Part shown: positions 2,313 to 35,894 of the stretch, one piece after another
Position numbering within the stretch: position 1 is the stretch's first letter
How the letters are laid out: every line of letters starts with the position of its first letter
Assembly (NCBI GenBank): GCA_002433065.1
Contig: DJHK01000015.1
Coordinates: forward strand, 3,784-67,783
Direction of reading: 5' to 3'
DNA: 64,000 bases
From: Chloroflexi bacterium UBA6622
Lineage (GTDB): Bacteria; Chloroflexota; UBA11872
Notes under the pieces: generated by a model
What the model saw: the letters and a program-made list of their open reading frames with translations, nothing else
Told to the model about the DNA's origin: nothing
Database searches by the model: none
Position numbers and translations under genes: made by a program

Positions 2313-2314
2313 GG

Positions 2315-5840: not shown

Positions 5841-5843
5841 GGG

Positions 5844-6992: not shown

Positions 6993-7000
6993 CAGAGCGC

Positions 7001-7963: not shown

Positions 7964-8035
7964 ATCCCGTGAACCCTCGTGAAAACTTATAGAAAACACT
8001 TACTGACGAAAGTATATAGGCGACGCTCCGACTGG

Positions 8036-10386: not shown

Positions 10387-10416
10387 AAGAACTTTGCCTA
10401 AAGAACCCTGGTCATT

Positions 10417-12242: not shown

Positions 12243-12291
12243 TCTGAGAATTTCAAGATCGCTATGAGCGACCAGAGCCGTAGGGAAATTC

Positions 12292-14486: not shown

Positions 14487-14487
14487 A

Positions 14488-19635: not shown

Positions 19636-20843
19636 GCGGCCAATTGATCCGGGCTCAAAAACATCACGATCCTTTCGGCCCGCTTTGCCCAAGTCATATG
19701 TTCAACTTCCGCGCGCGCAACTTGCGCCAACCCACGGGCGAGCACATGATCATTTAACAGGCGGTTCACAGCATCAGCCAGCGCTTCAGGATCATCAGGG
19801 GTAACAAGAAGCGCATTTTCACCATCCCGCAAGATCTCGCGAAGCGAAGGTAAATCGCTAGCCACGATCGACCGTTGCGCCGCCATATACTCAAACAGTT
19901 TGAGAGGAGAGGTGTAACTGCGAGAAATTTCTTCACGGGCGCTGAATGGGATCACCGCAACATCAGCCGCAAGAAGATATTTACGAGCAAGCGAAGGTGA
20001 GAGATGGCCTGTTACGTGAATATTGTTATGGCCAGACGCAGCCGAACGAATGCGGTCAAGATCTGGCGATACACCACCAACGATATACCAGTGCACACTC
20101 TCATCCATTTGGTCAGCAGCCTCCACCAGGACATCCACCCCCTTCCAGGGATACAGATGCCCGATATAGCAGGCTATAGGCGCAGCTTCGGGCAACTCCA
20201 AATCTTGGCGTGCTTCTAACTGACCATCTTGTTCAAACGCTGCAACATCAACCCCATCGGCAGCTACTAGAACTCGGGAGGGATCAAATCCAGCATCCAA
20301 ATACCACTGCCGGAGCCCTTCGGTGATCGTCACTACGCCGTCCATGCGACGTACAGCCCACCAGTGCAATGCCGACGAAAACTTGGATCGAGGTACCGTG
20401 TGGGCCTCAAACGCAAACTTGGCCTCATGCCTCGTAAATATTCTGAGCACCGTAAGCGGCAAGAGATCGCGACTAATAACGATGTCCCCTCGCCATCGCT
20501 CAGCCATAAATGCAGCAGAAATAGTAAAGGTCCAAAGCTGCAAGAAGTGAGCCACCAATCGTATTGGCGCCACATTCAAGAAGGGCCAATCGAGAGTCAC
20601 TCGTTTAATCGCATCAATAGTCGGAAGTCCGACTAACCTGAAACTTCTGGCCACGTTGGCATAGTCGAACGGATCACCGACCCTTCGCATAGCAACCGTG
20701 TTCGCTCTCCGGGCATAGGCAAGCGTGACCTGCGCACCTCCACTAGCAAACGCCGCCGCCATATGCATGATCTGCATCGGATGAGCCCGCTCACTCGGAA
20801 TACGAGCATTGGCGATCATCACAATTCGCAAGGGATGACTCAT
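19632..20843 (-). CDS. Glycosyltransferase family 4
   Basis: LRIVMIANARIPSERAHPMQ N-terminus and SPLKLFEYMAAQRSIVASDLPSLREILRDGENALLV. Confidence 0.78.
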   Translation of the reverse strand: MSHPLRIVMIANARIPSERAHPMQIMHMAAAFASGGAQVTLAYARRANTVAMRRVGDPFDYANVARSFRLVGLPTIDAIKRVTLDWPFLNVAPIRLVAHFLQLWTFTISAAFMAERWRGDIVISRDLLPLTVLRIFTRHEAKFAFEAHTVPRSKFSSALHWWAVRRMDGVVTITEGLRQWYLDAGFDPSRVLVAADGVDVAAFEQDGQLEARQDLELPEAAPIACYIGHLYPWKGVDVLVEAADQMDESVHWYIVGGVSPDLDRIRSAASGHNNIHVTGHLSPSLARKYLLAADVAVIPFSAREEISRSYTSPLKLFEYMAAQRSIVASDLPSLREILRDGENALLVTPDDPEALADAVNRLLNDHVLARGLAQVARAEVEHMTWAKRAERIVMFLSPDQLAA

Positions 20844-20846
20844 GAA

Positions 20847-22649
20847 TTAAATCCGATATACAAGAGAAATCCTTGCTCCAGATTCGATCTGACCAAAGCG
20901 AATTCGACTCGATCGACGCGTCCATCGCACCTGAGCCTTAACTTTCAGCGCTTTGACCTTGACCGGTAATCGATACTGCACATCATGAAGTCGACCTGAA
21001 GCCTCGAGTTCATCGCGAACCAGCACGGATGTCTCATCGACAAGATATGTCCGACGAATCTCAACATTCGAACAGACGGTTCCGTCCCTATCAGCAATCC
21101 CAGACTTAATGACCAAAGAATCACCGTCAACATGGACAGTGCTTTTCGTCGCGTGGCTCGACGAACTACGACGATGTGCTCGAAACATCGGTAGAGAGAA
21201 GTGTCGCCAAATCAATCCTGCGGCATGTCGCCATCGACCGGCCCGGGCATGCGATCGAGCAATGTGCAACACGAACCGATTTTCACGGCCGAGACCACGA
21301 ACTGAACCATGACCAATCGATGGCCTGGACCGTCGGACCGACCAGGATGCTTCTGGTTCATCGGGTTCCGACTCAAACTGGATCCTATTTCGCCAATCGT
21401 CATCCTTGTTACCAACATAAACCAGGCCCCCACCGCCAACACGACCGCCCACAAGACGGTCAGCAGGGCACTTGTCAGTTCGAACAATTGCACACGCCGT
21501 TCGTGAACCGATCCGGGCGACACCAGCATCGGCCGCATGTGTCGGGCCAGAGGGATCAAGATCCGTGGCATCCACCTTTCGTTCATCGAGCTGCGCTGCA
21601 GCATACGCACGAGCAATCCAGGCCAAATCAGCCGTATGAAACACCCGACAGACAAAACCAGCGGACCCCGAAGTAGCTTCCAGAAATCCTGATGGGGTTA
21701 CAGCCGAAACACTCTGAGCCGCCACTCGACAAGCCAGTGGAATCATCGACTTTCGTCCATCGGTCGCGAGCACATAAGCATCGTACGCAGATGAGCCAGC
21801 TTCAGTGTCAGCGTCCCAAAACCACCGTTTCCCTTCCAATCCCAGTGGCTTAAGACCGTCGGGGCGAAGCACCGTACACAAAAAATCAGCACCAGCCCGT
21901 AAAGCATCCTCAAATTCAGCCTCAGCACCGAAGAGACGGAGTGCATAACGAGAAAACCCTACGCATCGACTGTGGTAATACACGGTTAGATCGGAAATAC
22001 CCACACCTTCACCAAGAGTTTCGGCGTCTTGGACATACCGAAACGAGCCATCGGGTCGCATCTCGGCTAAAGAACGATCAATCGCCTGTTTAACTGGTAG
22101 GCGCCAAACGGTCTCATCCAAAGCCACGGATGCCGCTGCCAAACCCATCGCTCCCCACAAGCGCTGATTAGTGACCGGCTTCGCGACAACGTTATGGACC
22201 AAATACGTCTCACAGCACAGTCGAATCGCCTCCTCGATGGCCTGACGTTCCAAAAGATCCAAGATATCTCCCGCATGCATTAGCAACGTAGCTAACGCAT
22301 CAACACATTCACCGGCATCAATAATATTCGTGGAGTTATTCCGAGAGTCATGGAGGCCAGGGAAAAACACCCAGGCGCCATCCGCCTCCGGATCTGGAGC
22401 TAGACGAGCCAGTACCACTCGAGCCGTCTGACGAGCCCTCGCAAGGTAGTGATCGTCACCCGTGTGCCGATGAAGAGCACAGTCGATGACGATGGATCTG
22501 GAAGATTTACCCGTGTGATCAACGCCGTGCTCCGGACAGCGCATATATCCGTAGTCATTACGCATCCGATTGAACAGGTCCGAAGCTGCCGATAACGCCT
22601 CCGCCGCATCCGGTGTCAGTGCCGAAACAGCAGGCGCACCGCTCGGCAT
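20847..22649 (-). CDS. Hypothetical 600-aa protein; possibly an alpha/alpha-toroid plus beta-sandwich glycan-modifying enzyme (heparinase II/III- or C5-epimerase-like)
   Basis: Long intact ORF tightly packed in the operon, with 3-nt gaps on both sides. I recognised no catalytic motif. The helical N-terminal two-thirds and the beta-rich, Arg-rich C-terminal third are judged from composition only. Confidence 0.35.
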   Translation of the reverse strand: MPSGAPAVSALTPDAAEALSAASDLFNRMRNDYGYMRCPEHGVDHTGKSSRSIVIDCALHRHTGDDHYLARARQTARVVLARLAPDPEADGAWVFFPGLHDSRNNSTNIIDAGECVDALATLLMHAGDILDLLERQAIEEAIRLCCETYLVHNVVAKPVTNQRLWGAMGLAAASVALDETVWRLPVKQAIDRSLAEMRPDGSFRYVQDAETLGEGVGISDLTVYYHSRCVGFSRYALRLFGAEAEFEDALRAGADFLCTVLRPDGLKPLGLEGKRWFWDADTEAGSSAYDAYVLATDGRKSMIPLACRVAAQSVSAVTPSGFLEATSGSAGFVCRVFHTADLAWIARAYAAAQLDERKVDATDLDPSGPTHAADAGVARIGSRTACAIVRTDKCPADRLVGGRVGGGGLVYVGNKDDDWRNRIQFESEPDEPEASWSVRRSRPSIGHGSVRGLGRENRFVLHIARSHARAGRWRHAAGLIWRHFSLPMFRAHRRSSSSHATKSTVHVDGDSLVIKSGIADRDGTVCSNVEIRRTYLVDETSVLVRDELEASGRLHDVQYRLPVKVKALKVKAQVRWTRRSSRIRFGQIESGARISLVYRI

Positions 22650-22652
22650 AAC

Positions 22653-23258
22653 CTAAATGCGCTCGCCGATCACGCGTGCTGGAACACCGCCTACGATGCT
22701 GTAGGGAGCGATATCTTCCGCTACCACTGCCCGGACTGCTACAACAGCGCCGTCGCCAATCGTTACGCCAGGAAGCACAACAACCTCGCTATAGATCATT
22801 ACGTCGTCACCGATGACGACAGGACTCTCCTCGATGGGCGCTTGCAAGATCGGGACATCACGACGACTGGTGTCATGACGGTGTGAATAAATCGTGGATT
22901 CGCGTCCAATATGCGAGTTTTTACCAATCGTGATTCCACCAGTACAGTCCAGCCGAACTCCAGATAAAACTTCCGTTCCAGAACCTATTTCAAGTGCCGC
23001 ATCATCCCGATAATCCGACTCGCAGCCAACCCGTACGTCACGCTTGATATGAACCCCAGCACCCATAGTGATTTTCAGACCACTGGGGTAGTAAAAACAA
23101 CTATCGATCTTGGCATCCGCCCCAACCTCAACACCGGCGGCACGACGAAGAAGCGCTGCCCTTAAGGTCCAAACCATCTGCTGATAACGTCGGAACACCC
23201 GAAAGTCCGGAAAGTGACCAACAAACCGTGCGAGCTGACGTGCAGGATCAGTCCTCAT
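22653..23258 (-). CDS. Left-handed beta-helix (hexapeptide-repeat) O-acyl/acetyltransferase
   Basis: Hexapeptide repeats ITIGKNSHIGRESTIY and VVIGDDVMIYSEVVVLPGVTIGDGAVVAVRAVV. Confidence 0.8.
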   Translation of the reverse strand: MRTDPARQLARFVGHFPDFRVFRRYQQMVWTLRAALLRRAAGVEVGADAKIDSCFYYPSGLKITMGAGVHIKRDVRVGCESDYRDDAALEIGSGTEVLSGVRLDCTGGITIGKNSHIGRESTIYSHRHDTSRRDVPILQAPIEESPVVIGDDVMIYSEVVVLPGVTIGDGAVVAVRAVVAEDIAPYSIVGGVPARVIGERI

Positions 23259-24394
23259 AACTCAGACTGAATTTCCGCCACCGAAGGAAAGTCAGGACGG
23301 TCTCCACGCCTGAGTGAATCAAACACCGCCACCAATTTTCCGACCAGCCCGTCGGCCCCATGCCCTTCAACCACTGACGTACGTAAACGACTTATAGTCG
23401 GATCGCGAAGATTTGGATGTAGTCCAAGAATTCCATCGACCCCACGAGCTAGTTCTGCAGGCGTATCACCTACCAAGAAATTGTTCGCCAGTTTGCCCAT
23501 AACATGCCGATACGAGCTGTTGTTGGTTATCACCGGAATCCCACACGCCATTGCCTCGAGCCCAGTCTTATCTAATGAAGGTTGCATCCGCCAGTTCACA
23601 AAAACGCTAAGAGACCGATAAAACTGAGCCATGCTATCTCCTCGAACTGGCCCAACAAACTCGACTGCGTGATCAACCGCGAGTTCAGTGGCCAAAAGCC
23701 GTAAATCCTTAACATATTGGTGATCGGCTGAGTAAAAAGGTTCCCCTGCAATCCTTAACGAGGCATTCGGGTAACCGTTATTGCGCAACGTAGCGAGCGC
23801 CCTGATGCCAGTGTCAAAACCCTTTAAAGGGGTAAGTCGACCAGCCATGCCAAGCACCGCTCCGGTCCCAGCCAATGACAGACCGGACGGAGCAAACCGT
23901 TGAGTATCGATCCCATGCCCAAGTAAGAATGCCCGATCGCTTGGGATCGGATAACTCTCCACGGAGGCCGTCACTGCCGCATTTACAATCCGATTGGCCC
24001 AAATAAGCGCTGACGACTTGCCATGGCTCGTGTACCAAAGGACTAGGGGCGCTCCGGCAAGGCGAGCAACTGGACCAATCGCCACTGCATACGCAGGAAC
24101 CATATGAGCGAACACTGCATTTACCCGGCCACTTGCCAACAAGGACACGCACGTCGCACCAAATTGGTAAACCCGGCGACCACGGGATCGACTGGATTCA
24201 CAGCCAAGACTATGGACGTACACGTTAGGGGGTAGCTCCATATCTACGACTCGACCAGCAAGCACATGAACAGATTCCACTCGCTTGGCTAACTCACCCG
24301 TCCAGTTATGCGCGACGGCCAAATTTACACTTGAAGAATTTAGCTCTTGTGTGACGAATAAGATCCGAAGACCCTGTCCAGTTCCATTAGTCAT
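23255..24394 (-). CDS. Glycosyltransferase family 4
   Basis: LRILFVTQELNSSS N-terminus, the GRLTPLKGF motif, and DKTGLEAMACGIPVITNN. Confidence 0.75.
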   Translation of the reverse strand: MTNGTGQGLRILFVTQELNSSSVNLAVAHNWTGELAKRVESVHVLAGRVVDMELPPNVYVHSLGCESSRSRGRRVYQFGATCVSLLASGRVNAVFAHMVPAYAVAIGPVARLAGAPLVLWYTSHGKSSALIWANRIVNAAVTASVESYPIPSDRAFLLGHGIDTQRFAPSGLSLAGTGAVLGMAGRLTPLKGFDTGIRALATLRNNGYPNASLRIAGEPFYSADHQYVKDLRLLATELAVDHAVEFVGPVRGDSMAQFYRSLSVFVNWRMQPSLDKTGLEAMACGIPVITNNSSYRHVMGKLANNFLVGDTPAELARGVDGILGLHPNLRDPTISRLRTSVVEGHGADGLVGKLVAVFDSLRRGDRPDFPSVAEIQSEL

Positions 24395-25514
24395 TTACTG
24401 ACATCCGTGCCAGTTTCCGATACGCAGCTGCATACGCCTCCAAAACTACCGACTTTTCAAACTGCACTGTCGATGCAGCCGCTGCAACCCCTACAGCACT
24501 CAGACCATCTGAATTCCCCAACGCCTCACACACGAGCGATGCTCCGGCTTCAGGATCCCACGGTAGTAACCAGCCATTCTCTCCATGGTCGATAGTTTCA
24601 GGCATGACCCCGACCGGCGTCGCAAACACCGCTGTCCCACAGGACATAGCTTCAAGACAAACGCGGGGCCCACCTTCGCTCAAAGATGGACAAACCAGGG
24701 CATTCACACCTCTATAGATCTCGGCAAGTTGATTGGTGGTTTCGAGCCAGCCCATGAATGTGACTTTCTTGAGAACCCCGACGCGTGCCAACTCAACCTC
24801 GAACGATCCACGTTCAGGCCCTTCACCAACAACAACAAACCTAGCCGAGGGCCATCTGGCTGCTACCGCTTCAAACACTTGAGCCACATACCGCAAATTT
24901 TTGTTGGCCACCAACCGGCCCACAAACCCCAAAGCGTATTCCTTGCTTCTGGTAGCAGGATGGAAAACTGATCGATCGATGTATGCCGACGAGAGCACAA
25001 GTATTCGACTCGTAGGAATGCCCCAACGGCGCAATATGGTTGGAACCTCCGAGCGATTTACAACACGAATAGCAACTGCACCGCGCGCTACACGGGTTAA
25101 GTACACGCGATAGATGATTTGCTCAAAAGGTTCCCACCACTGGGCTCGTCGAGGATGCCCAGGCACATGGTGGATTTCACTAACGTACGGCGTTCCATAC
25201 TTCCGCGACAGGAACGAAGCCGCACGTCCGTTTGAAAATATGCCGTAATCGTGGCTAACGATCAGATCGTGACCGTGCGCATGCATAAGTTCCGCACCGC
25301 GTTTACGTAACCACCACGTCTGTCGCAACCGAGACACTGGCGACGATTCAACAGAAACTCCATTGTGGGGATTCATCCTCGAGTTACTACCAACATTCGG
25401 GGTTAGGACATCTATCCGATCAAATTCAGTCGATAATCCTTCCAGAGTTGTTGCAAAAGGACCCGACCGACCAATCGCAACATCACGATCACCGCTGAGC
25501 ATAAGTAACTTCAC
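24387..25514 (-). CDS. Glycosyltransferase family 4
   Basis: FVGRLVANKNL and SEGGPRVCLEAMSCGTAVFATPVGVMPETIDHGENGWLL. Confidence 0.78.
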   Translation of the reverse strand: MKLLMLSGDRDVAIGRSGPFATTLEGLSTEFDRIDVLTPNVGSNSRMNPHNGVSVESSPVSRLRQTWWLRKRGAELMHAHGHDLIVSHDYGIFSNGRAASFLSRKYGTPYVSEIHHVPGHPRRAQWWEPFEQIIYRVYLTRVARGAVAIRVVNRSEVPTILRRWGIPTSRILVLSSAYIDRSVFHPATRSKEYALGFVGRLVANKNLRYVAQVFEAVAARWPSARFVVVGEGPERGSFEVELARVGVLKKVTFMGWLETTNQLAEIYRGVNALVCPSLSEGGPRVCLEAMSCGTAVFATPVGVMPETIDHGENGWLLPWDPEAGASLVCEALGNSDGLSAVGVAAAASTVQFEKSVVLEAYAAAYRKLARMSVND

Positions 25515-26674
25515 GCTGTTGGATACCCGGTACGTCGAGTCAACTTGAGCAAAATTTGCATGGTTTCATCGACCAATCGATCCCAAACAAAATGCTCGAG
25601 ATTCGTAGAAGCTGCCCCGCTTAACCGCTCACCAAACGCAGGGTTATTCAACACCCGATTTACCGCAGCAACAAATGATTCTGAGTCCCCAAATGGCACT
25701 AGGAGCGCATTTTTTTCATTCGTGAGAATCTCTCGGTTTCCACCAATATCCGTGGTCACGATCGGCGTCCCTATAGTCCGAGTCTCAATGAGCGTGTGAG
25801 ACAAACCCTCATACTCTGTATTCAGCACGAACACATCAGCCGCTCGAAGATACCTAGGCACGTCTTCATGAGCTACACGACCCACAAAACGAACTCGGTC
25901 AGTAACACCGAGATCTCGTGCACACTGTTCAAGAAATTTTTGCTCCGGTCCATCACCCACAACCACCAGGGTTGCACCCTTCGCAAATGCTGGAACCATA
26001 GCAACGAGATCATCCACACGTTTCCACGCATAGAGACGTGCAACCGTACAGACCACAGGTCCATTCAAGCCCAACTCTCGTTTAGCCTCGTCGCGTGTGT
26101 GCTCAATCAAAGGAGTTTCGGTTAACGCATTCTGAACAACTCGAATCTTTGATTCACTGATGCCCCAACCTTTTACGAGCTGCCCTACATATGAACTCGG
26201 AACAATCACCGTGGTCGCCAATCGACTATAGGCTCGCTGCAGAGCCCGAAACGCCCGCACCCTAAGCGGATGACGAGCCTCTTGAAAGGCTTCAATCCCA
26301 TCCCGTGTAAGTTCACGACGAATCGATGACTCCCAAGCCCAATCACCAACGACCTTAAGCACACGGGGACGTCCGGCCAACAATGCAGCGAGAGTGGAAG
26401 GAAGCTCAATCCCGTTGATATACACCACGTCGGACCTACGAGCTGCACGCCACGTGTACCAAAACACAAGCAAGTAGCGCCAGATCACTGGAGTGGCCCA
26501 CGACACCCGCTTTATAGGAAAAGGAGTTTGAACAAGTCCCTCGGGATCATCGGGACACACTACAGCCCGAACCTCATGCCCACGGTCGTAAAGAGTTCGG
26601 GCCAGGTGATAAATGTGCGTAGCAGGTCCGCCAACCGTCGGCGGAAATATGTTCGAGACAAATGTGACACGCAT
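25511..26674 (-). CDS. Glycosyltransferase family 4
   Basis: MRVTFVSNIFPPTVGGPATH N-terminus and YEGLSHTLIETRTIGTPIVTTDIGGNREILTNEKNALLV. Confidence 0.8.
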   Translation of the reverse strand: MRVTFVSNIFPPTVGGPATHIYHLARTLYDRGHEVRAVVCPDDPEGLVQTPFPIKRVSWATPVIWRYLLVFWYTWRAARRSDVVYINGIELPSTLAALLAGRPRVLKVVGDWAWESSIRRELTRDGIEAFQEARHPLRVRAFRALQRAYSRLATTVIVPSSYVGQLVKGWGISESKIRVVQNALTETPLIEHTRDEAKRELGLNGPVVCTVARLYAWKRVDDLVAMVPAFAKGATLVVVGDGPEQKFLEQCARDLGVTDRVRFVGRVAHEDVPRYLRAADVFVLNTEYEGLSHTLIETRTIGTPIVTTDIGGNREILTNEKNALLVPFGDSESFVAAVNRVLNNPAFGERLSGAASTNLEHFVWDRLVDETMQILLKLTRRTGYPTA

Positions 26675-26772
26675 TAGCTGGACGCTAGCATCGAGCCCGC
26701 AGAGTCACAACGTTAGCAGCTCAGGCTCAAGAAATTTCGATACCGAGCTCAGCAAACACAGCCCGTTGCAGG

Positions 26773-27876
26773 CTACTCGGTCGAAGATGCCTTAGAGACA
26801 TCATGAGAGCCATTCTGAAGGACCGGTAACGAACTCTCCCCCGTAACCACCCCACGAGCACTAGAAAACAGACTCCATGCAGCGCCATCATCCTGCCAAA
26901 CAGCATCGCATCCGCGACACAACTTGTAGTCCTCTAAGTTCCCGGCCACATGAGCCTGTCGAATCGCCTGGTATTCCTTACTGTTCCATATGTCCAGAAT
27001 CGATTGGGTCGACAAATCCCCCATAATCTGATCCTCAGCGAAGTCAGCGCAGCATGACGGAACCTTGCCATTCCAATATATGGCCATCGACTTCCACAAC
27101 CAATTGCACGGAAAGAAATTAGGCCCATGCGGCCGCGCCGTGTAGAAATCCGACGTCTCCATCTGTCCAGCCCACCCATGAGCCCAAAACGTATCCCACT
27201 CGTCTACGGGTAACCCGGTAAACCGATCAAGAAAGTGTTGGGGAATAGTAGGTAGCGCCCCCTTGGCATAACCCGAATTCCAGAGTTGAATCACCTGCAT
27301 CACCATGTAGGGACGTTTACCAGATCTAGTTTTCATCGCCCGTAATAATTGCAATACCCGCTCTAGAGTGTGATCAAACTTGGCACCCTTGCGCATTTCC
27401 TCGTACTCGTCAGGCTCACCAGAATCAAAACTGACAGTGAGCTTGCTCGGTCGAGCATCCAATAAAAGATCGATTTTCTCATCACGTAGTAGCGTGGCGT
27501 TTGTGTTTATATGCGCGGCTATGCCAGCTTCCTCGCACACCCGGATCATCTCGTAGATGTCTTTGTGCATCATCGATTCACCGCGGAAGAACAAATTAGC
27601 CTCCGTTGTGAAATCCTTGGCCTCATTAATGATCTTTCGAAAAAGGTCCAGTTCCATAAAACCGTTGTGCTCATTCGCACCCACACTTTGGGGGCACATC
27701 GGACAACGAAGATTGCAAAAGCTCGTGGGTTCAATGTGGAGCTTGAGAGGCCCATAAGGAACTTCCGTGGACCCTTTCATCCAGTGATAAATAAATCGAC
27801 CAAGAGACGGACGCAGGATCGCACGGTGACGACGATACTTGAGGAGCAAGTCTTTAGCTTGGCCGACTCTATTCAC
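26773..27876 (-). CDS. Radical SAM enzyme with C-terminal SPASM/twitch-like Cys cluster
   Basis: LKLHIEPTSFCNLRCPMCPQ contains the C-x3-C-x2-C radical SAM motif. GESMMH resembles the GGE motif. The C-terminal auxiliary-cluster cysteines are FFPCNWLW..VPSCCADF..LCRGCD. Confidence 0.8.
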   Translation of the reverse strand: MNRVGQAKDLLLKYRRHRAILRPSLGRFIYHWMKGSTEVPYGPLKLHIEPTSFCNLRCPMCPQSVGANEHNGFMELDLFRKIINEAKDFTTEANLFFRGESMMHKDIYEMIRVCEEAGIAAHINTNATLLRDEKIDLLLDARPSKLTVSFDSGEPDEYEEMRKGAKFDHTLERVLQLLRAMKTRSGKRPYMVMQVIQLWNSGYAKGALPTIPQHFLDRFTGLPVDEWDTFWAHGWAGQMETSDFYTARPHGPNFFPCNWLWKSMAIYWNGKVPSCCADFAEDQIMGDLSTQSILDIWNSKEYQAIRQAHVAGNLEDYKLCRGCDAVWQDDGAAWSLFSSARGVVTGESSLPVLQNGSHDVSKASSTE

Positions 27877-28106
27877 GAAGCGGTATCAACCGTCTCGCCG
27901 TTCGGCGGAATTGCCTCATCCCACAGCATGTTAGGGATTCCATCCTCAACTTTGTAACCGTAGCCACAGACCGTGCATACCAGCATCTTTCCACTTACGC
28001 GCAGCACACCGTCATCACGACTATGCTCATCGTTCACACAACGAAGCATCGCTAAGAAATCATCAGGGATGATTGACGAAGCCTGGGAATTGTCAGGATT
28101 GGCCAT
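27873..28106 (-). CDS. Trm112/YcaR-like small protein (DUF343)
   Basis: 77 aa. LAMLRCVNDEH..LVCTVCGYGYKVEDGIPNMLWDEAI matches the Trm112 family C-terminal Y-x-[IV]-x-D-G-I-P-x-[ML]-L motif. The first C-x-x-C pair is degenerate. There is a 4-nt overlap with the radical SAM gene. Confidence 0.7.
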   Translation of the reverse strand: MANPDNSQASSIIPDDFLAMLRCVNDEHSRDDGVLRVSGKMLVCTVCGYGYKVEDGIPNMLWDEAIPPNGETVDTAS

Positions 28107-28141
28107 ATATCAATATTACGTCAAATTGCTTATCTTGGACG

Positions 28142-30388
28142 CTAGAGCATGAAGTGAAGCGTGTCAAAAACAATCAGCAGAGACGCAAAGCTCATAACGG
28201 CTCCAACTTGCATTACTCGCGCCGTCCGTGAACGTATAAACATTTTCTTGGTTAAGCCAATCCACGCACCGAGCGCAAGAAATTGTAGCCCTAAGAGGAT
28301 TATGGCTACCCAGATCAACACTACCGGATAAGCGAGAAAACTTTCGGTTAGTCCCATCGACCAAAAATCAAGTCCAAGACCATTTTCTGGACGACGAGGG
28401 ATCGCATCGACACCAAATCGAGACCACGGTGTACGGCTTAAAGCATCGGCCAAAAAATCGGTTCGGTCGGGTGCAAGAAGATTCACAGCGTCGGCTCGCA
28501 ACAACCACGCATGACCAAGTAGGGGTGAAAACTGGTAAGAGTAGAGAACAGCCGCATAATCGCCCTCAGGTTGGATGGACGACCACGGCTGGTAGTCCGC
28601 ACCACCATAAATCGCACCGTTCAGAGGCACTGCGCCAGCCACTTGCTGTTGGAATACGTCTAGATAGCCCGTGAAATCCTTTGACACCCCCATAAGTTGT
28701 GGGACGACACTAATTGCTACCGTCAGAGCGAGCACAACCTTTAACAACCGCCTACGCGAACAACTAAACATGTGCTCAATGAGTGGTGCACCCAAAACAA
28801 CAAGGAAAGGTAGCGTGGGGACTAGATACCGAGGCCCCCAAGCATTACCGCCGTACCACACTTGCTTCCGGCTATATAGCAGCACATACACAATCGGAAT
28901 AGCAATAAAAAAGGCTGATCGCCAGCCATGACGACGGATAAACCACGGTATAACTGGAACAGTTAAAAGAAGGATTGGGTTGTACCACAACACACCCTTC
29001 CCCCAACTCGTGAGTAATCCCCCCAAACCAAGACCGAAAGGTAGCTCTAGCCACCCGCGCTGTAGACCACCGAGCAACTCCCGCTCGTAGAGCAATCGGA
29101 AATCAAAAACCAACCCCGCAACAAGAAGTACCGCAGGAACAATCAACAGGAAGGGAGCCAGCAAAATCATTTGCAACTGCAGCGAAGACCTAAAGCCAGC
29201 AAACCACCCATGTTTCCTACCTTCTCGTAAGAGAATCGCCAACAAAAAGACGGGGATTGCAATAACAGAGACATATTTGGTTAGTACCGCTGCAAATATG
29301 GCTGAACCCGCCAAGAACACATACCGGCGGCGATTGGTGAAATCAAAAACAAGAATCAGCCACACAGTAGTCAGCAGTAATGTCGTGACTAGAGGCTCAG
29401 CAAAATCATATTTGGCGTAAGGCCATGCCATAGTGCCCAAACCATAAATAATGGCTATAACAATCGACACCTGTTCCGAATACCCCAAACGTCTAACTAT
29501 TCGAAAAACCAAAACCGCTGCGAAAGCCGTGATTAGCGCATTGGCTACAGGCACCCATAACCGACGAAAAAACTCCTGATTCTGTCGCTCGGACCAGACA
29601 CGACCGACCCCAGGCCCATCTATCCACCGACCTCCAACCATCCGAAGAGCTAAGCCATCGACGTAAAAGTTTCCGGTCGATCGTAAATATGCAACCTCAG
29701 CGCTCACGAGATCCAAAGGCGGATCGAACTCCCATGTCGCCGCGTAATAGTAGGCCCGGGAATTACCGATATGCCTAGCAACTGGTTTTGGTTGTTCATG
29801 CTGAATTACTGCACGAACATCGCCTCGATCGTATGCCCACTCTGCTGTCTCAACTCCGACACGAATAGGGTAAGTCGTAACTTCCCCCGAAGATTGAACT
29901 AGCGAGACCCGAGCGATTTCAGTTCCCTGAGCAAACTCTGCGCTGAGCCCACTATGTGAAACGAGGGTCATTCGATCGTAGGTACCCGACTTAATAGAAA
30001 GATCCAACCTTTCTTTAACGCCGTGACCATCCGTCCCACCAATTGGATGAAAATTGACAAGCAACACATCGTGTTCTGCAAGAGGAATACGATCCCGTTG
30101 CGGTGCCGAAAGAGCGATAGGCTCGGCCAGTGCCACGAAAGGCAGTAAGACTGTAGGAAGACCTACACCCCACCTGGCAAAGTTCTTGTTTTGATCCCTC
30201 AGGTACGCATGGCCAGGATCAACCATCGCACTCTTGGCCATCTCAAAGGCAAACGTCCCGTCAGCGCTATAGCCAGCCCCATTACGCCCCATGCCTAGCG
30301 TCATTGCATAAATTGAGAACATGAACAAAAAAATCAGTAGTGCAGGCCGACAGTTCACCCCACCAATAAGTGAACGCATCCTATTCAT
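28142..30388 (-). CDS. GT-C-fold-like polytopic membrane glycosyltransferase (GT39/ArnT/PMT_2-like) with a large soluble insert
   Basis: 748 aa. After TM1 comes an acidic first loop (YSADGTFAFEMAKS), then a soluble segment of about 180 aa (aa ~93-275), then more than 10 TM helices and a C-terminal region. The family assignment rests on architecture and composition, not on a diagnostic motif. Confidence 0.5.
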   Translation of the reverse strand: MNRMRSLIGGVNCRPALLIFLFMFSIYAMTLGMGRNGAGYSADGTFAFEMAKSAMVDPGHAYLRDQNKNFARWGVGLPTVLLPFVALAEPIALSAPQRDRIPLAEHDVLLVNFHPIGGTDGHGVKERLDLSIKSGTYDRMTLVSHSGLSAEFAQGTEIARVSLVQSSGEVTTYPIRVGVETAEWAYDRGDVRAVIQHEQPKPVARHIGNSRAYYYAATWEFDPPLDLVSAEVAYLRSTGNFYVDGLALRMVGGRWIDGPGVGRVWSERQNQEFFRRLWVPVANALITAFAAVLVFRIVRRLGYSEQVSIVIAIIYGLGTMAWPYAKYDFAEPLVTTLLLTTVWLILVFDFTNRRRYVFLAGSAIFAAVLTKYVSVIAIPVFLLAILLREGRKHGWFAGFRSSLQLQMILLAPFLLIVPAVLLVAGLVFDFRLLYERELLGGLQRGWLELPFGLGLGGLLTSWGKGVLWYNPILLLTVPVIPWFIRRHGWRSAFFIAIPIVYVLLYSRKQVWYGGNAWGPRYLVPTLPFLVVLGAPLIEHMFSCSRRRLLKVVLALTVAISVVPQLMGVSKDFTGYLDVFQQQVAGAVPLNGAIYGGADYQPWSSIQPEGDYAAVLYSYQFSPLLGHAWLLRADAVNLLAPDRTDFLADALSRTPWSRFGVDAIPRRPENGLGLDFWSMGLTESFLAYPVVLIWVAIILLGLQFLALGAWIGLTKKMFIRSRTARVMQVGAVMSFASLLIVFDTLHFML

Positions 30389-30409
30389 CGGATAGGAGAT
30401 TTGGCTCGA

Positions 30410-31990
30410 TCAGTTATCAAAGAGGCCCGCCACGAGCTCAAGAAGACGCATACGGAACGCTTCAGCACTAAACTTCCTACTCGATATTCGAGCCCGGGCA
30501 GCCATCGAACTGCACAGCTCCGGGTCACGAATTAATTGCCACGTACGCTCACGCAGATTCTCTGCTTTAGACCAAACAAAGCCATCGTGACTATCAGTCA
30601 CTAGTTCTGGTAGTCCCCCTTGGTCTAACACAACAGGTACTGTTGAACTCGCCATGGCCTCAACAACTGAAATCCCAAAATGCTCAAATCGGACTGGATT
30701 TCGATCCGCTCGCTCCCCATATCCCGCGGCATGCCAGTAAATACGAGCATCACCGTACATCTGGCGAAGCTTATCGAAGGGCACATCTACCGCAAATTCA
30801 ATGGGATACCCCTCAGCCCGCCGCCTCAACTCTTCTGTGTATGCGACGTCAATCGCTCGTCCACTTTGATGTCCGGCAAGACAAAATTTCCAACCATCTA
30901 GGCCTTCGCGACACATACGCTTGAACTGATCAATCATTAGTCCATGCTTTTTCTCATGCGTACCTCGAAAAAATCTTCCCACCGTCAGTATTGTGTGTGT
31001 CTTGGCGCGTGCCTGCGCCCAACTGATGTCGACCGGTGGATACAGGATCGGCCCGCTTATCCCCCAGTACACTTCCATCCAATGCCGACTGTATTTCGAA
31101 ATCGGACAAATAACGTCATATGTATCAAGATGATCAAGGGAATAAAACGTGGGCAGGCCTTCAAGCCGGAGTCCAAGCTCACGAAACGCCTTTCGAAACA
31201 TGATTTCGTATAGGTAGTGGCGCAAATGTCGAACCCTTACGTCGGTGACGGCTAGGCCTACCTCCCTGTTGTCAGCACCCTCAAACCGATCGATTGGATT
31301 AAACGTCGGCGATTCAAGAACTAACTCGACGGTGTTCCCATGCATACGACTCGGATCGATATCGATCTGCCAAGTTTCAAAAGATCCAGGATTGGGAGGA
31401 AAGCTACGTTCAGCAATAACCTCACCGTCAACGAGACATCGGACCGGAAGCTCCACATCCTCTCGAAAGTTTCCTCCAACGATCTCGATGGAGGCGCGTC
31501 GAGTCGACGACGGAACTCGAACCCTGATATTCGCTTGCCCGGTAGCGTAGCGAAACCAACCGGAACCAAGTTCCTGAACGTCGTAAAACCCATCCAACCA
31601 TTCGGGAAGCAGGAGTTCGCGCATAAGGAATCGACCGATAGTCTGTCGAATCATTGCTCCTCGACTTCGATCGATAGGGGAAGGAAATAGAACCAGCATC
31701 ATGCTGTGATCAGCTTCTGAAGGCTGGTTCGTCATAAAAGATGAGTTGATAAATAGATCAAACTCACGCGTAAACGCCGAGAACCGATTCGGTGGTAGAG
31801 CAGGAATGACTCGAACCGTCACGTTACTCAGATCAATGTTTAAGGCATCGGAAAGTTCTTCCCGGGAAACAGGTCGATGAGTCACCAGTTCAGTTTCGAA
31901 CCGCTCTGAGAGAACCTTTGCGGCCATAGCAGAATGTCTTTCCCCACCACCTTTTTGATGGAGCCAACGGTTGTACACCGCCGCTTTCAC
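30410..31990 (-). CDS. GT4-type glycosyltransferase carrying a ~120-aa inserted accessory module
   Basis: C-terminal FEHFGISVVEAMASSTVPVVLDQGGLPELVTDSHDGFVW (E-x7-E region). The N-terminal half is interrupted at aa ~131-253 by a module that ends ADNREVGLAVTDVRVRH. Confidence 0.72.
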   Translation of the reverse strand: MKAAVYNRWLHQKGGGERHSAMAAKVLSERFETELVTHRPVSREELSDALNIDLSNVTVRVIPALPPNRFSAFTREFDLFINSSFMTNQPSEADHSMMLVLFPSPIDRSRGAMIRQTIGRFLMRELLLPEWLDGFYDVQELGSGWFRYATGQANIRVRVPSSTRRASIEIVGGNFREDVELPVRCLVDGEVIAERSFPPNPGSFETWQIDIDPSRMHGNTVELVLESPTFNPIDRFEGADNREVGLAVTDVRVRHLRHYLYEIMFRKAFRELGLRLEGLPTFYSLDHLDTYDVICPISKYSRHWMEVYWGISGPILYPPVDISWAQARAKTHTILTVGRFFRGTHEKKHGLMIDQFKRMCREGLDGWKFCLAGHQSGRAIDVAYTEELRRRAEGYPIEFAVDVPFDKLRQMYGDARIYWHAAGYGERADRNPVRFEHFGISVVEAMASSTVPVVLDQGGLPELVTDSHDGFVWSKAENLRERTWQLIRDPELCSSMAARARISSRKFSAEAFRMRLLELVAGLFDN

Positions 31991-33348
31991 TGCGACTCCA
32001 AAAAAGGATTGAGCTCCCGCCCGTCTAACGGAGCATGACGACCTTCATTCACCCGCAGTTGAAACGTTTTGGGAGCAGCCGTTACAACTTGTAACAGGGC
32101 CCGTGCACGGGCCAGAGAAAGAGCTATAGACGCCCCGTCTAGCTGCAAAATGCCAACTTGTGCATCATTCCAAGCGTACTTTGTGGCTGCAGCCATATGA
32201 CGCAAAGTCCAAAGAAACGGTGCATTCTTAGTAAGCATGCGTAGTTTTCCGAACTCAACATTTCGGGTAAAACCTGGCGACCATTCTTTGCTAAACGCGG
32301 CATGTTCGTGACGCACAACCGAGGAGGGCTCGTAACAAAAGACCCATCCGCGTCTACGAGCCCTCCATGCAAGATCCGCGTCCTCGTAGTACATGAAAAT
32401 CCCATCGTCTAGATAATCCAGCCCGTCCAACATGTCCCGGCGATACAGAACCGCTGCACCTTTTGGGGCGAAAATTTCACACCGGTCGTGGAATGCCGGG
32501 CTATCCCAAGCCGACCACGGAACTCCTTCGAGAACACGAGTGCCTCGATCACGCATCGAACCATCAGGTAAAGGCACAATCCCGGCACTCTCGATCACCG
32601 GCCGCGCCATCGTCGAAACAACAGCGCTCTTGAAAGGAATCTCATTTGTTGTCCGCCCTGGATTCAACTCCACGTGTCCAACCTCACAATTTCCAACAAG
32701 AACTTTTACAGGCACCCCGTGACGACCATCACCGCCAGCCAATTCCAACTTCATAAGAGTGGAACCTTCAACCACCGGCAGTGAGAAATCGACACAACTC
32801 ATTGACCAACGAAATGCACGTCCACCGTCATCCCGCTCCACACCATAAGCACCATTCGTAACGTCGGCCTGACCGACATCTGATCGAAGACCATATATCC
32901 GAATTCCAAGTCTTCGAGCATCCGAACCAGAAGGAACAAACTCGGGAACCTCAAGACGGATCGGCAACCTGTCGTGAAGGTGAAGAATTTTTGGTGCAAC
33001 ACCTCCGACTGATGAATCTTCAGTTAACCGGTCGACAAGCGGCTTTAGCCAGTTAGGGTCAACAATGGTGTCCGGATTTAACAGGCCGACATACGGCTCA
33101 TTCGCCACCCGTAATGCCTGATTGTTGCCTCGAGAGAATCCGACATTTTCACCATTCTTAATGACATCAACTGACGGGAATTCCTGACGTACTCGGTCAA
33201 CAGAATCATCTGTCGAAGCGTTGTCTACGACTGATATCCGAAGATCTGGATACTTGGTTTCGGTAAGACTTTTCAAACAGCCTTCAATTCGACCCTCGCC
33301 GTTATAGTTCAGCACAACAACCCGAACAGGGGGAAGTTTTTTAGTCAT
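31987..33348 (-). CDS. GT2-family glycosyltransferase (rhamnosyltransferase-like) with an inserted accessory module
   Basis: VRVVVLNYNG, VVDNASTDDS, GFSRGNN, LNPDT and YYEDADLAWRARRRGW are GT2 (GT-A) landmarks. A non-GT2 insert lies at aa ~125-245. Confidence 0.82.
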   Translation of the reverse strand: MTKKLPPVRVVVLNYNGEGRIEGCLKSLTETKYPDLRISVVDNASTDDSVDRVRQEFPSVDVIKNGENVGFSRGNNQALRVANEPYVGLLNPDTIVDPNWLKPLVDRLTEDSSVGGVAPKILHLHDRLPIRLEVPEFVPSGSDARRLGIRIYGLRSDVGQADVTNGAYGVERDDGGRAFRWSMSCVDFSLPVVEGSTLMKLELAGGDGRHGVPVKVLVGNCEVGHVELNPGRTTNEIPFKSAVVSTMARPVIESAGIVPLPDGSMRDRGTRVLEGVPWSAWDSPAFHDRCEIFAPKGAAVLYRRDMLDGLDYLDDGIFMYYEDADLAWRARRRGWVFCYEPSSVVRHEHAAFSKEWSPGFTRNVEFGKLRMLTKNAPFLWTLRHMAAATKYAWNDAQVGILQLDGASIALSLARARALLQVVTAAPKTFQLRVNEGRHAPLDGRELNPFLESQ

Positions 33349-35051
33349 TCCACCCGAATAGAGCGCACAGCAAGCCCCAGCGGCCTAGTGTCAGTATCAA
33401 GACCGATGTCGGCTGGCACTAGCGGATCTTCGACTTCTATGACAAGTTCATGCGTCTCAGGACTTATCACAGGGTCTAGTGGAATAACGATGTCTTCAAA
33501 ATCCATCCCGTGTACAGGAACTGTGGCGATATGACGACCGTTTACAGTCACCGATGCCCGTGTGGTTCCTCGTCCATGCAACGGACGACACGCGGATAAA
33601 ACCAATGCCCCTTGGCCAACGTCCTGCCTGACGTAGGCAACAGCGCGTGGCGCAGTCCAACGAATGTGTGGAGGCCAGTCTTCAGCCGGAAACCAGCCTT
33701 CACCGAGCCATTCATCATCCCGAGAACCCATGATCAACTCTTCCGGTGGCAGAGTCCAAAAAGGGCCAGCAGCCTCGGTCATCATGTCGGGTTGTAATAT
33801 TGGCTCGCCGGCGACCTGAAGTTCGTCTTCGTGAGCAGCCGTCGACACGCGCCATCTGGCAGGAATAACAGTCACACCACGTAATCCAACAGCTGCTTTA
33901 CCCACGAAAAAAGTCATAGCATTGGGCCAAATGTGAAATGGGCGCATCCTGTCAGCCAATGGCCACACCCCAAGTGAAACCTTATAGCTTCCAGGGCCAA
34001 GCGGCAGAGGGCCAAGCTCACACTCGACTCGAGTTCTACCGGGTTGGAGTTCGGTCGGACCAATTGTTGTCGCTGTCGAAGTTTCGTGAATCAGCAGCCC
34101 ATCGCTTCGTCGAACAGCAAAGCCAACAACGACGTCCTCAAAATAACCGCTGGAATCCAACTCGAGCTCAAGCCTGAAAATATTTCCCGGTAGATAAGCG
34201 TAGCGTTCAGAACCCGTGTCCACATCACGAGCAAGCGCCGCTCGAATCTGGACTTCACCGGTACCGAGTTCGGTCAATTCATTGCTTGCAATCTGACTCT
34301 CGGCGTGGCCAGAACCGCGCATATGCGCGAGATAATCTTGAATGACCTCACGTGGATTCCCCTGAGCACGGACCTTGCCACTATCAACCCACACGACACG
34401 GTCACAAAATCGTCGAACTTGAATGGGATCGTGAGAAACAAACACGATTGTTTTTCCGCGCTGCTTGATCTCGGCGAGAGCGTCATAACACTTCGCGGTA
34501 AAGCTCGCATCGCCAACAGCAAGAACTTCGTCAATTAAGAGGATGTCTGGATCCAAACTGATAGCAATTGCGAATCCCAATCGCATGAACATTCCCGACG
34601 AATAGTGCCGAACAGGTGTGTCAATAAAGCGCTCAAGTTCAGCAAACTCAACGATCTGCTTATAGCGCCGTCGCATTTCTGCCCGCCCAATCCCAAGAAA
34701 CGAGCCATTAAGGAAAATATTCTCCCGCCCTGTCAGATCGGGATGCATCCCAGCACCTAGCTCAAGAAGGCCAAAAACCTTTCCGTCCAACCTAATTTCC
34801 CCTGAGGTCGGAGAAATAGTTCCGGCCAACAGCTTGAGGATTGTGGTCTTTCCTGACCCGTTCGGCCCAATGATCCCAACCGTTTCACCCTCTTTCACCG
34901 TTAAGTCCACGCCATCGAGGGCCCAGAACTCTTCGTGCTGAATCTGGCGCCGACCGAGTAGCGCTAACGCCATGCCCTGCCATGTACGAGTCGATTCATG
35001 CCGAATCGAAAATCTCTTACGCACTTCTTCTAGAACTATTACGTTCGACAC
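33345..35051 (-). CDS. wzt: ABC transporter ATP-binding protein, Wzt/TagH-type, with a Wzt_C-like domain and an extra C-terminal module
   Basis: Walker A GPNGSGKTT, signature YSSGMFMRLGF, Walker B LLIDEVLAVGD, H-loop VSHD. Residues ~262-385 fit the Wzt C-terminal beta-sandwich pattern (..LPLGPGSYKVSLGVW). Residues ~447-568 form an additional module. Confidence 0.85.
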   Translation of the reverse strand: MSNVIVLEEVRKRFSIRHESTRTWQGMALALLGRRQIQHEEFWALDGVDLTVKEGETVGIIGPNGSGKTTILKLLAGTISPTSGEIRLDGKVFGLLELGAGMHPDLTGRENIFLNGSFLGIGRAEMRRRYKQIVEFAELERFIDTPVRHYSSGMFMRLGFAIAISLDPDILLIDEVLAVGDASFTAKCYDALAEIKQRGKTIVFVSHDPIQVRRFCDRVVWVDSGKVRAQGNPREVIQDYLAHMRGSGHAESQIASNELTELGTGEVQIRAALARDVDTGSERYAYLPGNIFRLELELDSSGYFEDVVVGFAVRRSDGLLIHETSTATTIGPTELQPGRTRVECELGPLPLGPGSYKVSLGVWPLADRMRPFHIWPNAMTFFVGKAAVGLRGVTVIPARWRVSTAAHEDELQVAGEPILQPDMMTEAAGPFWTLPPEELIMGSRDDEWLGEGWFPAEDWPPHIRWTAPRAVAYVRQDVGQGALVLSACRPLHGRGTTRASVTVNGRHIATVPVHGMDFEDIVIPLDPVISPETHELVIEVEDPLVPADIGLDTDTRPLGLAVRSIRVE

Positions 35052-35894
35052 TTAGAGTTCTTCCGCAAATCGATTGGATAAGCGCCGGAAGATTGACCAG
35101 CCCAAACCGAGTAAAACAACCGCACCGACTACAGTGATCCAAGTATGGCGAATTGGCAGAAAGCCCCACATAAAGGCGTATCGGTAGTCGGTAACCAATG
35201 TCGCCATTGGGTTAAGAACAAATACCCAGCGATGTACATCTAGGCCTAGAACTGTGTTGTTCGGAACGATTGACATGGCATAAAAGATCGGAGTCAGGAA
35301 GAACCACGCCAAAAGACCGACTTCTACGATGTGCTCTGTGTCGCGAAAATAAACATTGATCGCAGCAAGAAGCAACCCAAGTCCCAAAACAAACACGAGA
35401 TGTAACAGCATGATGGCCGGCAAAAACAACATAGCGCCAGTTATACCTACCCCAAACGGAATAGCAACCAACCAAAAAACACCGTAAGCCAGAAGGAAGT
35501 TCACAAAGCTCGCAAGGATTGCGCTCAAAGGTAGAAGCTCACGCGGGAAATAGACTTTTTTAATTAACTGTGCATTGGACGTAATACTTCGCATAGCAGA
35601 GGTGAGTGCCTGTTGGGTAAAGAGCCATGGCACTAGCGCAGCTAGCAGGAAAAATGGATATCGCTCAATAGGATCCGTCTTCGCCAGCACCTGAAAAACA
35701 AGCGTAAAGACCGCCATCATCAGCAGTGGATTAAGCAATGACCAGCCGAATCCAAGCACAGAACCTCGATAGCGAACCTTGAGGTCTCGAACCACCAAGT
35801 TTCGTAACAGATCACTGTAACTACTCAGTTCGCGAACGGACCCCAAAAATCTTCGGGCAGCATCGGCACGCCCTTTAACAGCATTAGCAGCCAT
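35052..35894 (-). CDS. wzm: ABC-2 type polysaccharide/teichoic-acid export permease (Wzm/TagG-type)
   Basis: 280 aa and six hydrophobic helices, with an ABC2_membrane-type N-terminus (LVVRDLKVRYRGSVLGFGWSLLNPLL). Its stop directly abuts the ATPase start. Confidence 0.85.
   Translation of the reverse strand: MAANAVKGRADAARRFLGSVRELSSYSDLLRNLVVRDLKVRYRGSVLGFGWSLLNPLLMMAVFTLVFQVLAKTDPIERYPFFLLAALVPWLFTQQALTSAMRSITSNAQLIKKVYFPRELLPLSAILASFVNFLLAYGVFWLVAIPFGVGITGAMLFLPAIMLLHLVFVLGLGLLLAAINVYFRDTEHIVEVGLLAWFFLTPIFYAMSIVPNNTVLGLDVHRWVFVLNPMATLVTDYRYAFMWGFLPIRHTWITVVGAVVLLGLGWSIFRRLSNRFAEEL

Follow-up and report, generated by a model that had tools for sequence, protein, structure and literature searches.

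We find that a 64,000-nucleotide stretch of the genome of Chloroflexi bacterium UBA6622 (contig DJHK01000015.1; the whole stretch is hereafter called the window) carries a gene for a small protein related to the Trm112/UPF0434 family and, overlapping it by 4 nucleotides (nt), a gene for a radical S-adenosylmethionine (SAM) enzyme. Because dozens of genomes keep the two genes together, their products are probably two subunits of one enzyme. With some reserve, we favor a radical enzyme of two subunits that tailors a sugar, acting as an epimerase or as a dehydrogenase. A more specific version, in which the radical SAM enzyme has in the Trm112-family protein a stoichiometric subunit dedicated to it and the holoenzyme uses radical chemistry to epimerize or oxidize a sugar of the Chloroflexota surface glycan, has in our judgment about an even chance of being correct.

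The small gene and the radical SAM gene form an overlapping pair

The 77-amino-acid (aa) and 367-aa open reading frames (ORFs) that an earlier note on this DNA had described are both found on the minus strand (Table 1), and the 4-nt overlap that it had claimed is read in the sequence as GTGA. Specifically, the small ORF ends in YKVEDGIPNMLWDEAIPPNGETVDTAS, and its TGA stop runs into the GTG codon at which the radical SAM gene starts. An identical 4-nt overlap is found in 56 related loci (33 with GTGA and 23 with ATGA), which supports the radical SAM start site as called, and the overlap suggests that translation of the two genes is coupled. Purifying selection acts on the small ORF: against its orthologues, the ratios of nonsynonymous to synonymous substitution rates (dN/dS) are 0.15–0.49. 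A promoter and terminator scan around the gene pair returned sites no more often than in shuffled sequence. The source genome assembly is 76% complete.

Table 1. Features of the window discussed in the text, with positions counted from its first letter
Feature	Position	Strand	Remark	Basis
Trm112/UPF0434-like small protein, putative divergent member	27873..28106	minus	77 aa	
D-G-I-P-x-M-L motif, residues 55–61 of the small protein	27924..27944	minus		alignments A2 and A4
Stop/start overlap of the small gene and the radical SAM gene	27873..27876	minus	GTGA	read from sequence
Radical SAM enzyme, predicted twitch type	26773..27876	minus	367 aa, GTG start	
Radical SAM cluster motif C54-x3-C58-x2-C61 (C54-N-L-R-C58-P-M-C61)	27694..27717	minus	invariant in A1	
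Twitch auxiliary-cluster region	26908..27108	minus	presumed ligands C257, C275, C320 and C323, plus extra C276	alignments
Polytopic membrane protein	28142..30388	minus	748 aa, about 12 hydrophobic segments; directly upstream of the pair, 35-nt gap	
GT4 glycosyltransferase	25511..26674	minus	directly downstream of the pair	Glycos_transf_1, 4.9e-36
Glycan operon, one same-strand block (putative)	4425..35894	minus	about 31 kb	Pfam scans and ORF map
Class I methyltransferase (Methyltransf_23/11)	11484–12410	minus		Pfam
ORF between a GT4 gene and the acetyltransferase gene	20847–22649	minus	600 aa	
Class III aminotransferase, class I methyltransferase and GFO/IDH/MocA oxidoreductase genes	930–4415	plus	converge on the operon end	
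LanC-like (lanthionine synthetase C-like) gene, partial	3–818	minus	window edge	

The pairing is conserved and moves as a unit

We recovered 78 loci with related radical SAM genes, nearly all labeled as Chloroflexota metagenome-assembled genomes (MAGs), and the Trm112-like ORF adjoins the radical SAM gene in 68 of them. Four of the 10 loci without this neighbor are cut off on the 5' side, which leaves 74 informative loci (68/74), again nearly all from Chloroflexota. The small gene overlaps the radical SAM gene by 4 nt in 56 loci, lies 70–115 nt away in 5, and is found directly downstream in the remaining 7, where the inverted-order copy reaches the PF03966 cut-off. In the tree of the radical SAM proteins, all deep clades have the small gene upstream, and a single relocation (clade support 100%) and a single nested loss of adjacency are seen. 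Co-conservation of the two genes, which the earlier note had proposed to check across genomes, is thus observed, including in the clade where their order is inverted.

The inverted-order clade (L044, positions 7120–9431, together with L045–L049 and L074) has no gene of the window's operon within 8 kb of the pair, which in L044 is encoded at 8001–9134 and 9180–9431. Instead, the pair is preceded by murA-like, mreB, yebC, and ruvCAB genes and, immediately before it, by a gene for an Rce1-like CPBP intramembrane protease, and genes of racemase-like and GFO/IDH/MocA type face it. That the pair is kept together at a relocated, non-glycan locus indicates that the two genes travel as a unit. The Trm112 copy of this clade contains an insertion that is helical and about 30 residues long.

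At a wider scale, radical SAM homologues below 1e-30 number 4845 among 1.84 billion cluster representatives. Only 2 representatives score above 500 bits and the next scores are near 350, a drop that places the window enzyme in a subfamily that is small and tight, within a large group. Of 301 genomes sampled from the phylum, 27 have a match at 1e-80. They belong to 10 of 171 genera; within the window's genus each of the 13 genomes has it, against only 2 of 10 in another genus. This uneven distribution among genera indicates a patchy, accessory module. One locus (L051) is labeled as a Sphingomonadaceae MAG; its radical SAM protein nests with those of the Chloroflexota loci L050, L053, and L054 and its synteny is the same, and the label is likely a binning error rather than a sign of gene transfer.

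The radical SAM enzyme is predicted to be of the twitch type

The 367-aa protein matches the Pfam models Radical_SAM (PF04055; E = 7.9e-19, 68.9 bits against a cut-off of 29.5) and SPASM (E = 1.2e-16, 61.1 bits), with no additional domain in a Pfam scan at E ≤ 0.01. No transmembrane segment is predicted, and the protein is soluble by prediction. It contains both the CNLRCPMC motif and the C-terminal cysteine cluster reported in the earlier note, the latter made up of C257 (PCNW), C275 and C276 (SCCADF), and C320 and C323 (CRGCD). In a tight-family alignment of 24 sequences (A1), C54, C58, C61, C257, C275, C276, C320, and C323 are all invariant. In a broader alignment of 74 rows (A3; 49 family members and 25 distant homologues), C54, C257, C275, and C320 are found in 74/74 rows and C58, C61, and C323 in 73/74, the lone row without C58 and C61 having a gap at those positions. 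By contrast, C276 is present in 49/49 family rows, while the 25 distant homologues have cysteine in 10 cases, asparagine in 14, and tyrosine in 1; from these alignments, C276 is a fifth, family-specific C-terminal cysteine.

Enzymes of the full SPASM subclass have a seven-cysteine pattern that includes CX2CX5CX3C and bind a second auxiliary cluster. Past C320-x2-C323 the window protein reads DAVWQDD, with no second-cluster cysteine, and columns 329 and 333 are variable in the alignments. Because the second-cluster positions have no conserved cysteines, we assign the C-terminal domain to the twitch type, a truncated SPASM domain with one auxiliary cluster (PMC9012708), rather than to full SPASM. 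The enzyme is as such a member of the twitch subclass, with one auxiliary cluster predicted from its cysteines; the earlier description of the protein as a SPASM enzyme stands insofar as the Pfam SPASM model matches, but not for the second cluster.

The domain content also bears on the type of reaction. Radical SAM methylases have a B12-binding domain (class B, cobalamin-dependent) or a HemN_C domain (class C, HemN-like), and neither was found in the window protein by the same Pfam scan. As Pfam shows only Radical_SAM and SPASM and no methylase-type extra domain, we judge C-methylation, one of the reactions put forward in the earlier note, to be unlikely.

The closest solved relatives act on sugars

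A profile search of the PDB with the radical SAM family returns BtrN as the best solved relative (5.6e-24), in an alignment that spans the core and the twitch region and in which the cysteine of BtrN's LPCFEDF and its C-x2-C fall on C275, C320, and C323. Other profile matches are the sugar-acting BlsE and DesII, interleaved with SuiB, CteB, and PqqE. The AlphaFold2 (AF2) model of the enzyme has a predicted local distance difference test (pLDDT) score of 91.3, and its top Foldseek match is again BtrN (4m7t; E = 9.3e-14; TM-score 0.73 by BtrN length), followed by SuiB, BlsE, DesII, SkfB, and anSME. BtrN, the best relative by both profile and fold, is a twitch radical SAM enzyme with a carbohydrate-like substrate (PMC9012708), and the BtrN-type analogy drawn in the earlier note is thereby upheld. 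The relation to SpeY is more distant (4.6e-5 by profile, rank 48 by fold).

BtrN and the window enzyme share the CX3CX2C motif and one auxiliary cluster site. However, the window enzyme is about 120 residues longer, with a 45-residue N-terminal extension, an insert at about 198–250, and a C-terminal helix, and unlike BtrN it has the fifth cysteine C276. It is not a BtrN orthologue: identity is about 19%, which means that the chemistry of BtrN is not transferable to it, and no aminoglycoside pathway is nearby. BtrN itself is the 2-deoxy-scyllo-inosamine dehydrogenase of the butirosin pathway (PDB 4M7T/4M7S) and the founding twitch enzyme, and we know of no Trm112-like partner reported for it. 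No 2-deoxystreptamine pathway gene was found around the window enzyme, where the operon is made up of glycosyltransferases and exporters.

The carbohydrate-tailoring radical SAM enzymes HygY, NeoN, and SpeY (a twitch dehydrogenase; PDB 7WZV) provide a second comparison, as in this group a cysteine donor sets whether an epimer or a ketone is formed. All three are antibiotic-pathway enzymes and apparently single subunits. C276 of the window enzyme is a candidate counterpart of the HygY/NeoN cysteine donor. As cited through PMC10991966, the radical SAM sugar epimerase NeoN uses Cys249 as its hydrogen donor, and the cysteine mutant of HygY, a twitch epimerase, reportedly becomes a dehydrogenase.

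Two further features concern the ends of the protein. A basic N-terminal extension of about 45 residues and two helices, seen in A1 and in the AF2 model, is conserved in the radical SAM family. In addition, one subclade (L065, L067, and L055; P0049–P0067) has a 50–90-residue C-terminal extension that reads "AAEVGxQGVAALAAAANGY" and then continues as low-complexity sequence. The idea that this extension substitutes for Trm112 was rejected, as L065 has both the extension and an adjacent Trm112 gene.

The small protein is a putative divergent Trm112 family member

The small protein of the window has no PF03966 match at E ≤ 10, and its match to the NCBIfam model Trm112_arch (2e-6, 27.8 bits) is under the cut-off of 77. 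However, among 16 orthologues, 13 have a PF03966 match, the best at 4e-12, and a profile of the orthologues finds SCO3027 (2kpi) at 9.5e-20, along with UPF0434 and archaeal and eukaryotic Trm112 structures. The Trm112/YcaR-type identity proposed in the earlier note is thus borne out for the orthologues, while the window copy itself fails the Pfam Trm112p model; we regard that copy as a putative divergent Trm112/UPF0434 member, an assignment made only through its orthologue group.

The AF2 model of the small protein (pLDDT 71.7) has one helix (H15–20) and three strands (E34–38, E41–44, and E50–54), and Foldseek places Trm112/UPF0434 structures on top and in most of the top 23 positions, with probabilities of at most 0.95, root-mean-square deviations down to 1.7–3.4 Å in the top six, and all E-values above 0.1. 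With the known members SCO3027 (2KPI), H. volcanii Trm112 (6F5Z), and A. fulgidus Trm112 (6ZXW), the small protein shares the predicted helix and three-strand knuckle and a DGIPxL-type motif, and it is also encoded, like other Trm112 proteins, beside its presumed client gene. It differs in the nature of that client, which here would be a radical SAM enzyme, whereas the known clients of Trm112 are class I methyltransferases.

Alignments A2 and A4 show L21, C23, Y51, P58, and L61 of the small protein to be invariant and I20, C44, D55, G56, I57, and M60 to be at least 90% conserved. The DGIPxML-type motif is also present in an alignment of the orthologues with 2kpi, and the conserved positions are those generic to the Trm112 family. 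The zinc site of the family has four ligands, arranged as CxxC...CxxC or as Cys/Asp variants of it. The candidate metal ligands in the window copy are C23, H28, C44, and C47; the first CxxC is lost and reads C23-VNDE-H28. Among clades of radical SAM-linked Trm112 proteins, some keep four cysteines and others just one or two, so that the zinc site is not conserved across the linked group, which argues against a redox role. A rubredoxin-like electron donor was specifically considered and rejected, as the Rubredoxin match has an E-value of 0.045 and the cysteines are not conserved across these clades.

Methyltransferases as possible alternative partners of the small protein

Several observations weigh against a dedicated, two-subunit enzyme acting on sugars. 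Six loci of one subclade (L055, L066, L067, L068, L070, and L078) have the radical SAM gene with no adjacent Trm112 gene, which indicates that the partner is not universally needed in cis. The pair of the inverted-order clade lies outside any glycan (glycosyltransferase) operon. No Trm112–radical SAM fusion was found, the long homologues being explained by low-complexity C-terminal tails or frameshifts. The absent Pfam match of the window's small protein, the E-values of its fold matches, and the low identity of the enzyme to BtrN count in the same direction. Finally, in seven genomes of the window's relatives (G000–G006) the radical SAM-linked gene is the only Trm112-family gene present, so it could also, or instead, serve methyltransferases.

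This last point leads to an alternative in which the small protein is an ordinary Trm112-type activator of the operon's class I methyltransferase, of housekeeping methyltransferases, or of both, and its position before the radical SAM gene reflects shared regulation or history. All Trm112 clients covered in a 2017 review are class I methyltransferases (PMC5372719), and a 2026 preprint predicts a class I methyltransferase partner for a mycobacterial UPF0434 protein; both facts also count against a radical SAM client, as does the presence in the operon of a Methyltransf_23/11 gene, an orthologue of which lies 15–20 kb from the small gene in G000, G001, G003, and G004. However, the Trm112–radical SAM adjacency persists in genomes in which about 1 Mb separates the methyltransferase orthologue and the pair (G002, G005, and G006) and in those with no clear orthologue (G007–G009); i.e. 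the operon methyltransferase is not co-conserved with the small gene. The joint relocation of the pair in inverted order to a non-glycan locus, and the maintenance of the 4-nt overlap in 56 loci, also speak against this alternative. Moreover, G007–G009 have extra Trm112-family matches elsewhere in the genome, of which one each in G007 and G009 was checked with Pfam and is a canonical PF03966 protein in an unrelated context, indicating that the radical SAM-linked copy is a separate paralogue. Taken together, we find a purely methyltransferase-directed role unlikely, and we retain it as an explanation because the small protein may also act in trans on methyltransferases.

Trm112-like neighbors were not found beside the radical SAM homologues of 28–41% identity in the sampled loci, some of which are on short contigs. 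When linked and unlinked radical SAM sequences were compared for interface residues, no position was altered in both unlinked groups, and A117 and I119 alone change in the nested unlinked subclade. In the paper library that was searched, no study connecting Trm112 with a radical SAM partner was found, in agreement with the earlier note, which knew of no description of such a pairing. Separately, Trm112-like segments are found inside open frames of 300–880 aa in the Chloroflexota genomes G010, G013, G014, G007, and G009, and these are probably fusions to larger proteins.

The small protein as a possible substrate of the enzyme

A short ORF coupled to a gene of the radical SAM/SPASM type is also the classic layout of a precursor and its maturase, and the small protein could on this basis be the substrate of the radical SAM enzyme, either as in the ribosomally made peptides that are modified after translation (RiPPs) or as the target of a dedicated protein modification. 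The SPASM maturases SuiB, SkfB, CteB, PqqE, and anSME share with the window enzyme the Pfam SPASM match, a general similarity of fold, and the arrangement of a small ORF followed by the enzyme; SuiB, SkfB, CteB (5why), and anSME are its second-tier fold matches, and the Rce1-like protease gene immediately upstream of the pair in the inverted-order clade can be counted for this possibility.

By contrast, the window enzyme has none of the second-cluster cysteines of these maturases and no recognition domain: a PqqD-like domain is absent from its Pfam scan, as is any other extra domain, and its N-terminal extension comprises just about 45 residues and two helices. No NCBIfam family, those for RiPPs and cofactors included, reaches its cut-off for the enzyme (best 104 bits against 380), and the models for StsB, WgkB, the KxxxW maturase, and PqqE score 47–58 bits against cut-offs of 381–650. 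The sole small ORF next to the enzyme gene is the Trm112-like one, and membership in a peptide-modifying subgroup with a precursor gene nearby, which the earlier note had named as evidence against a sugar enzyme, is thus not observed. The fold predicted for the small protein is that of a Trm112 zinc knuckle, and its conserved positions show no separate core and leader pattern, while its tails are variable. Considering also that the best relatives of the enzyme act on sugars and that its wider family includes fusions to glycosyltransferases, we hold a substrate role of the small protein to be very improbable.

The pair lies in a putative cell-surface glycan operon

In the window, the two genes are part of a single same-strand block. 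Read from position 35894, the operon encodes Wzm, Wzt (with Wzt_C), a family 2 glycosyltransferase (GT2), a family 4 glycosyltransferase (GT4), the 748-aa membrane protein, and the Trm112–radical SAM pair. These are followed by three GT4 proteins, a hexapeptide acetyltransferase, a 600-aa orphan, a GT4, a YfhO-like membrane protein, and another GT4, and then by a Wzx-like flippase, a GT4, a Glyco_trans_1_2 protein, and the class I methyltransferase. The operon ends with three GT4 proteins, a nucleoside diphosphate (NDP)-sugar epimerase/dehydratase, a GT4, and a Bac_transf initiating transferase. Judged by this gene content, the block is a predicted cell-surface glycan locus.

The immediate neighbors of the pair are conserved to different extents. 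The GT4 gene directly downstream is the commonest conserved neighbor, with an orthologue within 8 kb of the pair in 57 loci, and all three downstream genes that the earlier note had called GT4 match Glycos_transf_1 (E-values from 1e-17 to 1e-36). The 748-aa membrane protein directly upstream is syntenic in 49 loci. Its earlier description as a GT-C-like enzyme agrees with its hydrophobic segments, but its sole family match, to the LA_3751/LA_3752 putative glycosyltransferase (7.1e-9), scores 35 bits against a cut-off of 200, and as a result the label is at most plausible.

More distant members of the radical SAM family are also linked to glycan genes. The wider family includes fusions of the enzyme to PMT_2 (GT-C) and to GT4 domains, as well as proteins with two tandem Radical_SAM + SPASM units (P0167, P0184, P0235, and P0266). 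The nearest outgroup, at 41% identity, has a GT4 gene immediately upstream, and a homologue at 34% identity lies among GT2, GT9, and GT4 genes. A homologue of about 28% identity (L083/L084, positions 6001–9915) has a 4-nt overlap with a gene for a DegT/DnrJ/EryC1 sugar aminotransferase, a coupling that resembles the logic of BtrN and BtrS and is the layout expected if the radical SAM enzyme makes a keto sugar, as BtrN does in the step before its aminotransferase. This locus, in which the DegT/DnrJ/EryC1 gene is followed by one for an asparagine-synthase-like amidotransferase, is likely an amino-sugar module built on a radical dehydrogenase.

Not all genomic contexts point to glycans, and the pair could form a true two-subunit radical enzyme with a non-carbohydrate substrate, such as a small metabolite, a lipid anchor, or the carrier (polyprenyl or lipid), for which the glycan context would be secondary. 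In the seven loci of the inverted-order clade the pair is outside glycosyltransferase operons, and four others (L008, L034, L040, and L042) lack conservation of the downstream GT4 genes. The weaker matches of the enzyme include the lipid-modifying radical SAM enzyme GDGT-MAS (7tol), and the conserved basic N-terminal extension of the family can be counted for this possibility as well. However, the strongest relatives of the enzyme in both sequence and fold act on sugars, the GT4 and GT-C fusions and the coupling to DegT in the wider family favor sugars, and even in the inverted-order clade a GFO/IDH/MocA oxidoreductase and an NDP-sugar epimerase/dehydratase are encoded within 5 kb of the pair. 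We therefore regard a non-carbohydrate substrate as quite improbable.

Proposed mechanism of a two-subunit sugar-tailoring enzyme

Starting from the observed gene structure, the cysteine pattern, the family and fold relations, and the co-conservation and joint movement of the pair, we infer a scheme that covers the physical complex, the carbohydrate substrate, the type of chemistry, and the role of C276. In this scheme, the [4Fe-4S] cluster on C54, C58, and C61 would cleave SAM and generate a 5'-deoxyadenosyl radical, while a second, fully ligated cluster would be bound by C257, C275, C320, and C323, as in BtrN. The radical would then take a hydrogen from a sugar carbon, and the sugar may be a nucleotide sugar, a polyprenyl-phosphate-linked sugar, or part of the growing glycan. 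Two fates of the resulting substrate radical can be envisaged. It may be oxidized via the auxiliary cluster to give a keto sugar, as in BtrN and SpeY, or it may be quenched from the opposite face by C276, the candidate donor, to give an epimer, as in HygY and NeoN. The adjacent GT4 and membrane transferases would subsequently place the modified sugar into a cell-surface polymer.

In the same scheme, translational coupling would lead to production of the small subunit at a fixed ratio. Trm112 is known to contact its partners through a beta-zipper, with burial of a hydrophobic surface, and the partners need it for solubility (PMC5372719). By analogy with these Trm112–methyltransferase complexes, the small subunit may bind the radical SAM enzyme through its zinc-knuckle sheet and DGIPxML segment, and binding would bury hydrophobic surface and thereby stabilize or activate the enzyme.

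If this is correct, the Trm112 fold would have in the radical SAM enzyme its first client outside the class I methyltransferases, and the idea of Trm112 as an activator would reach from SN2 methyltransferases to radical SAM chemistry, whose enzymes make up the other large group that uses SAM. Bacterial Trm112/UPF0434 proteins are widespread, YcaR of E. coli being one example. Their function was called unknown in 2017 (PMC5372719), and their only proposed client is the predicted mycobacterial methyltransferase of the 2026 preprint; the bacterial clade would thus gain its first defined partner beyond that predicted complex. Carbohydrate-tailoring twitch enzymes would gain a type of accessory subunit, and the pair would signal an unusual sugar in the surface glycan of those Chloroflexota lineages, which are known here from MAGs alone.

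Other features of the window

The 600-aa ORF of the operon has no Pfam or NCBIfam match and no predicted transmembrane segment, and it is conserved in 31 related loci. Outside the operon, the plus-strand trio that converges on the operon end includes a GFO/IDH/MocA oxidoreductase gene, a type of gene also present near the pair in the inverted-order clade. The partial LanC-like gene is located at the very edge of the window.

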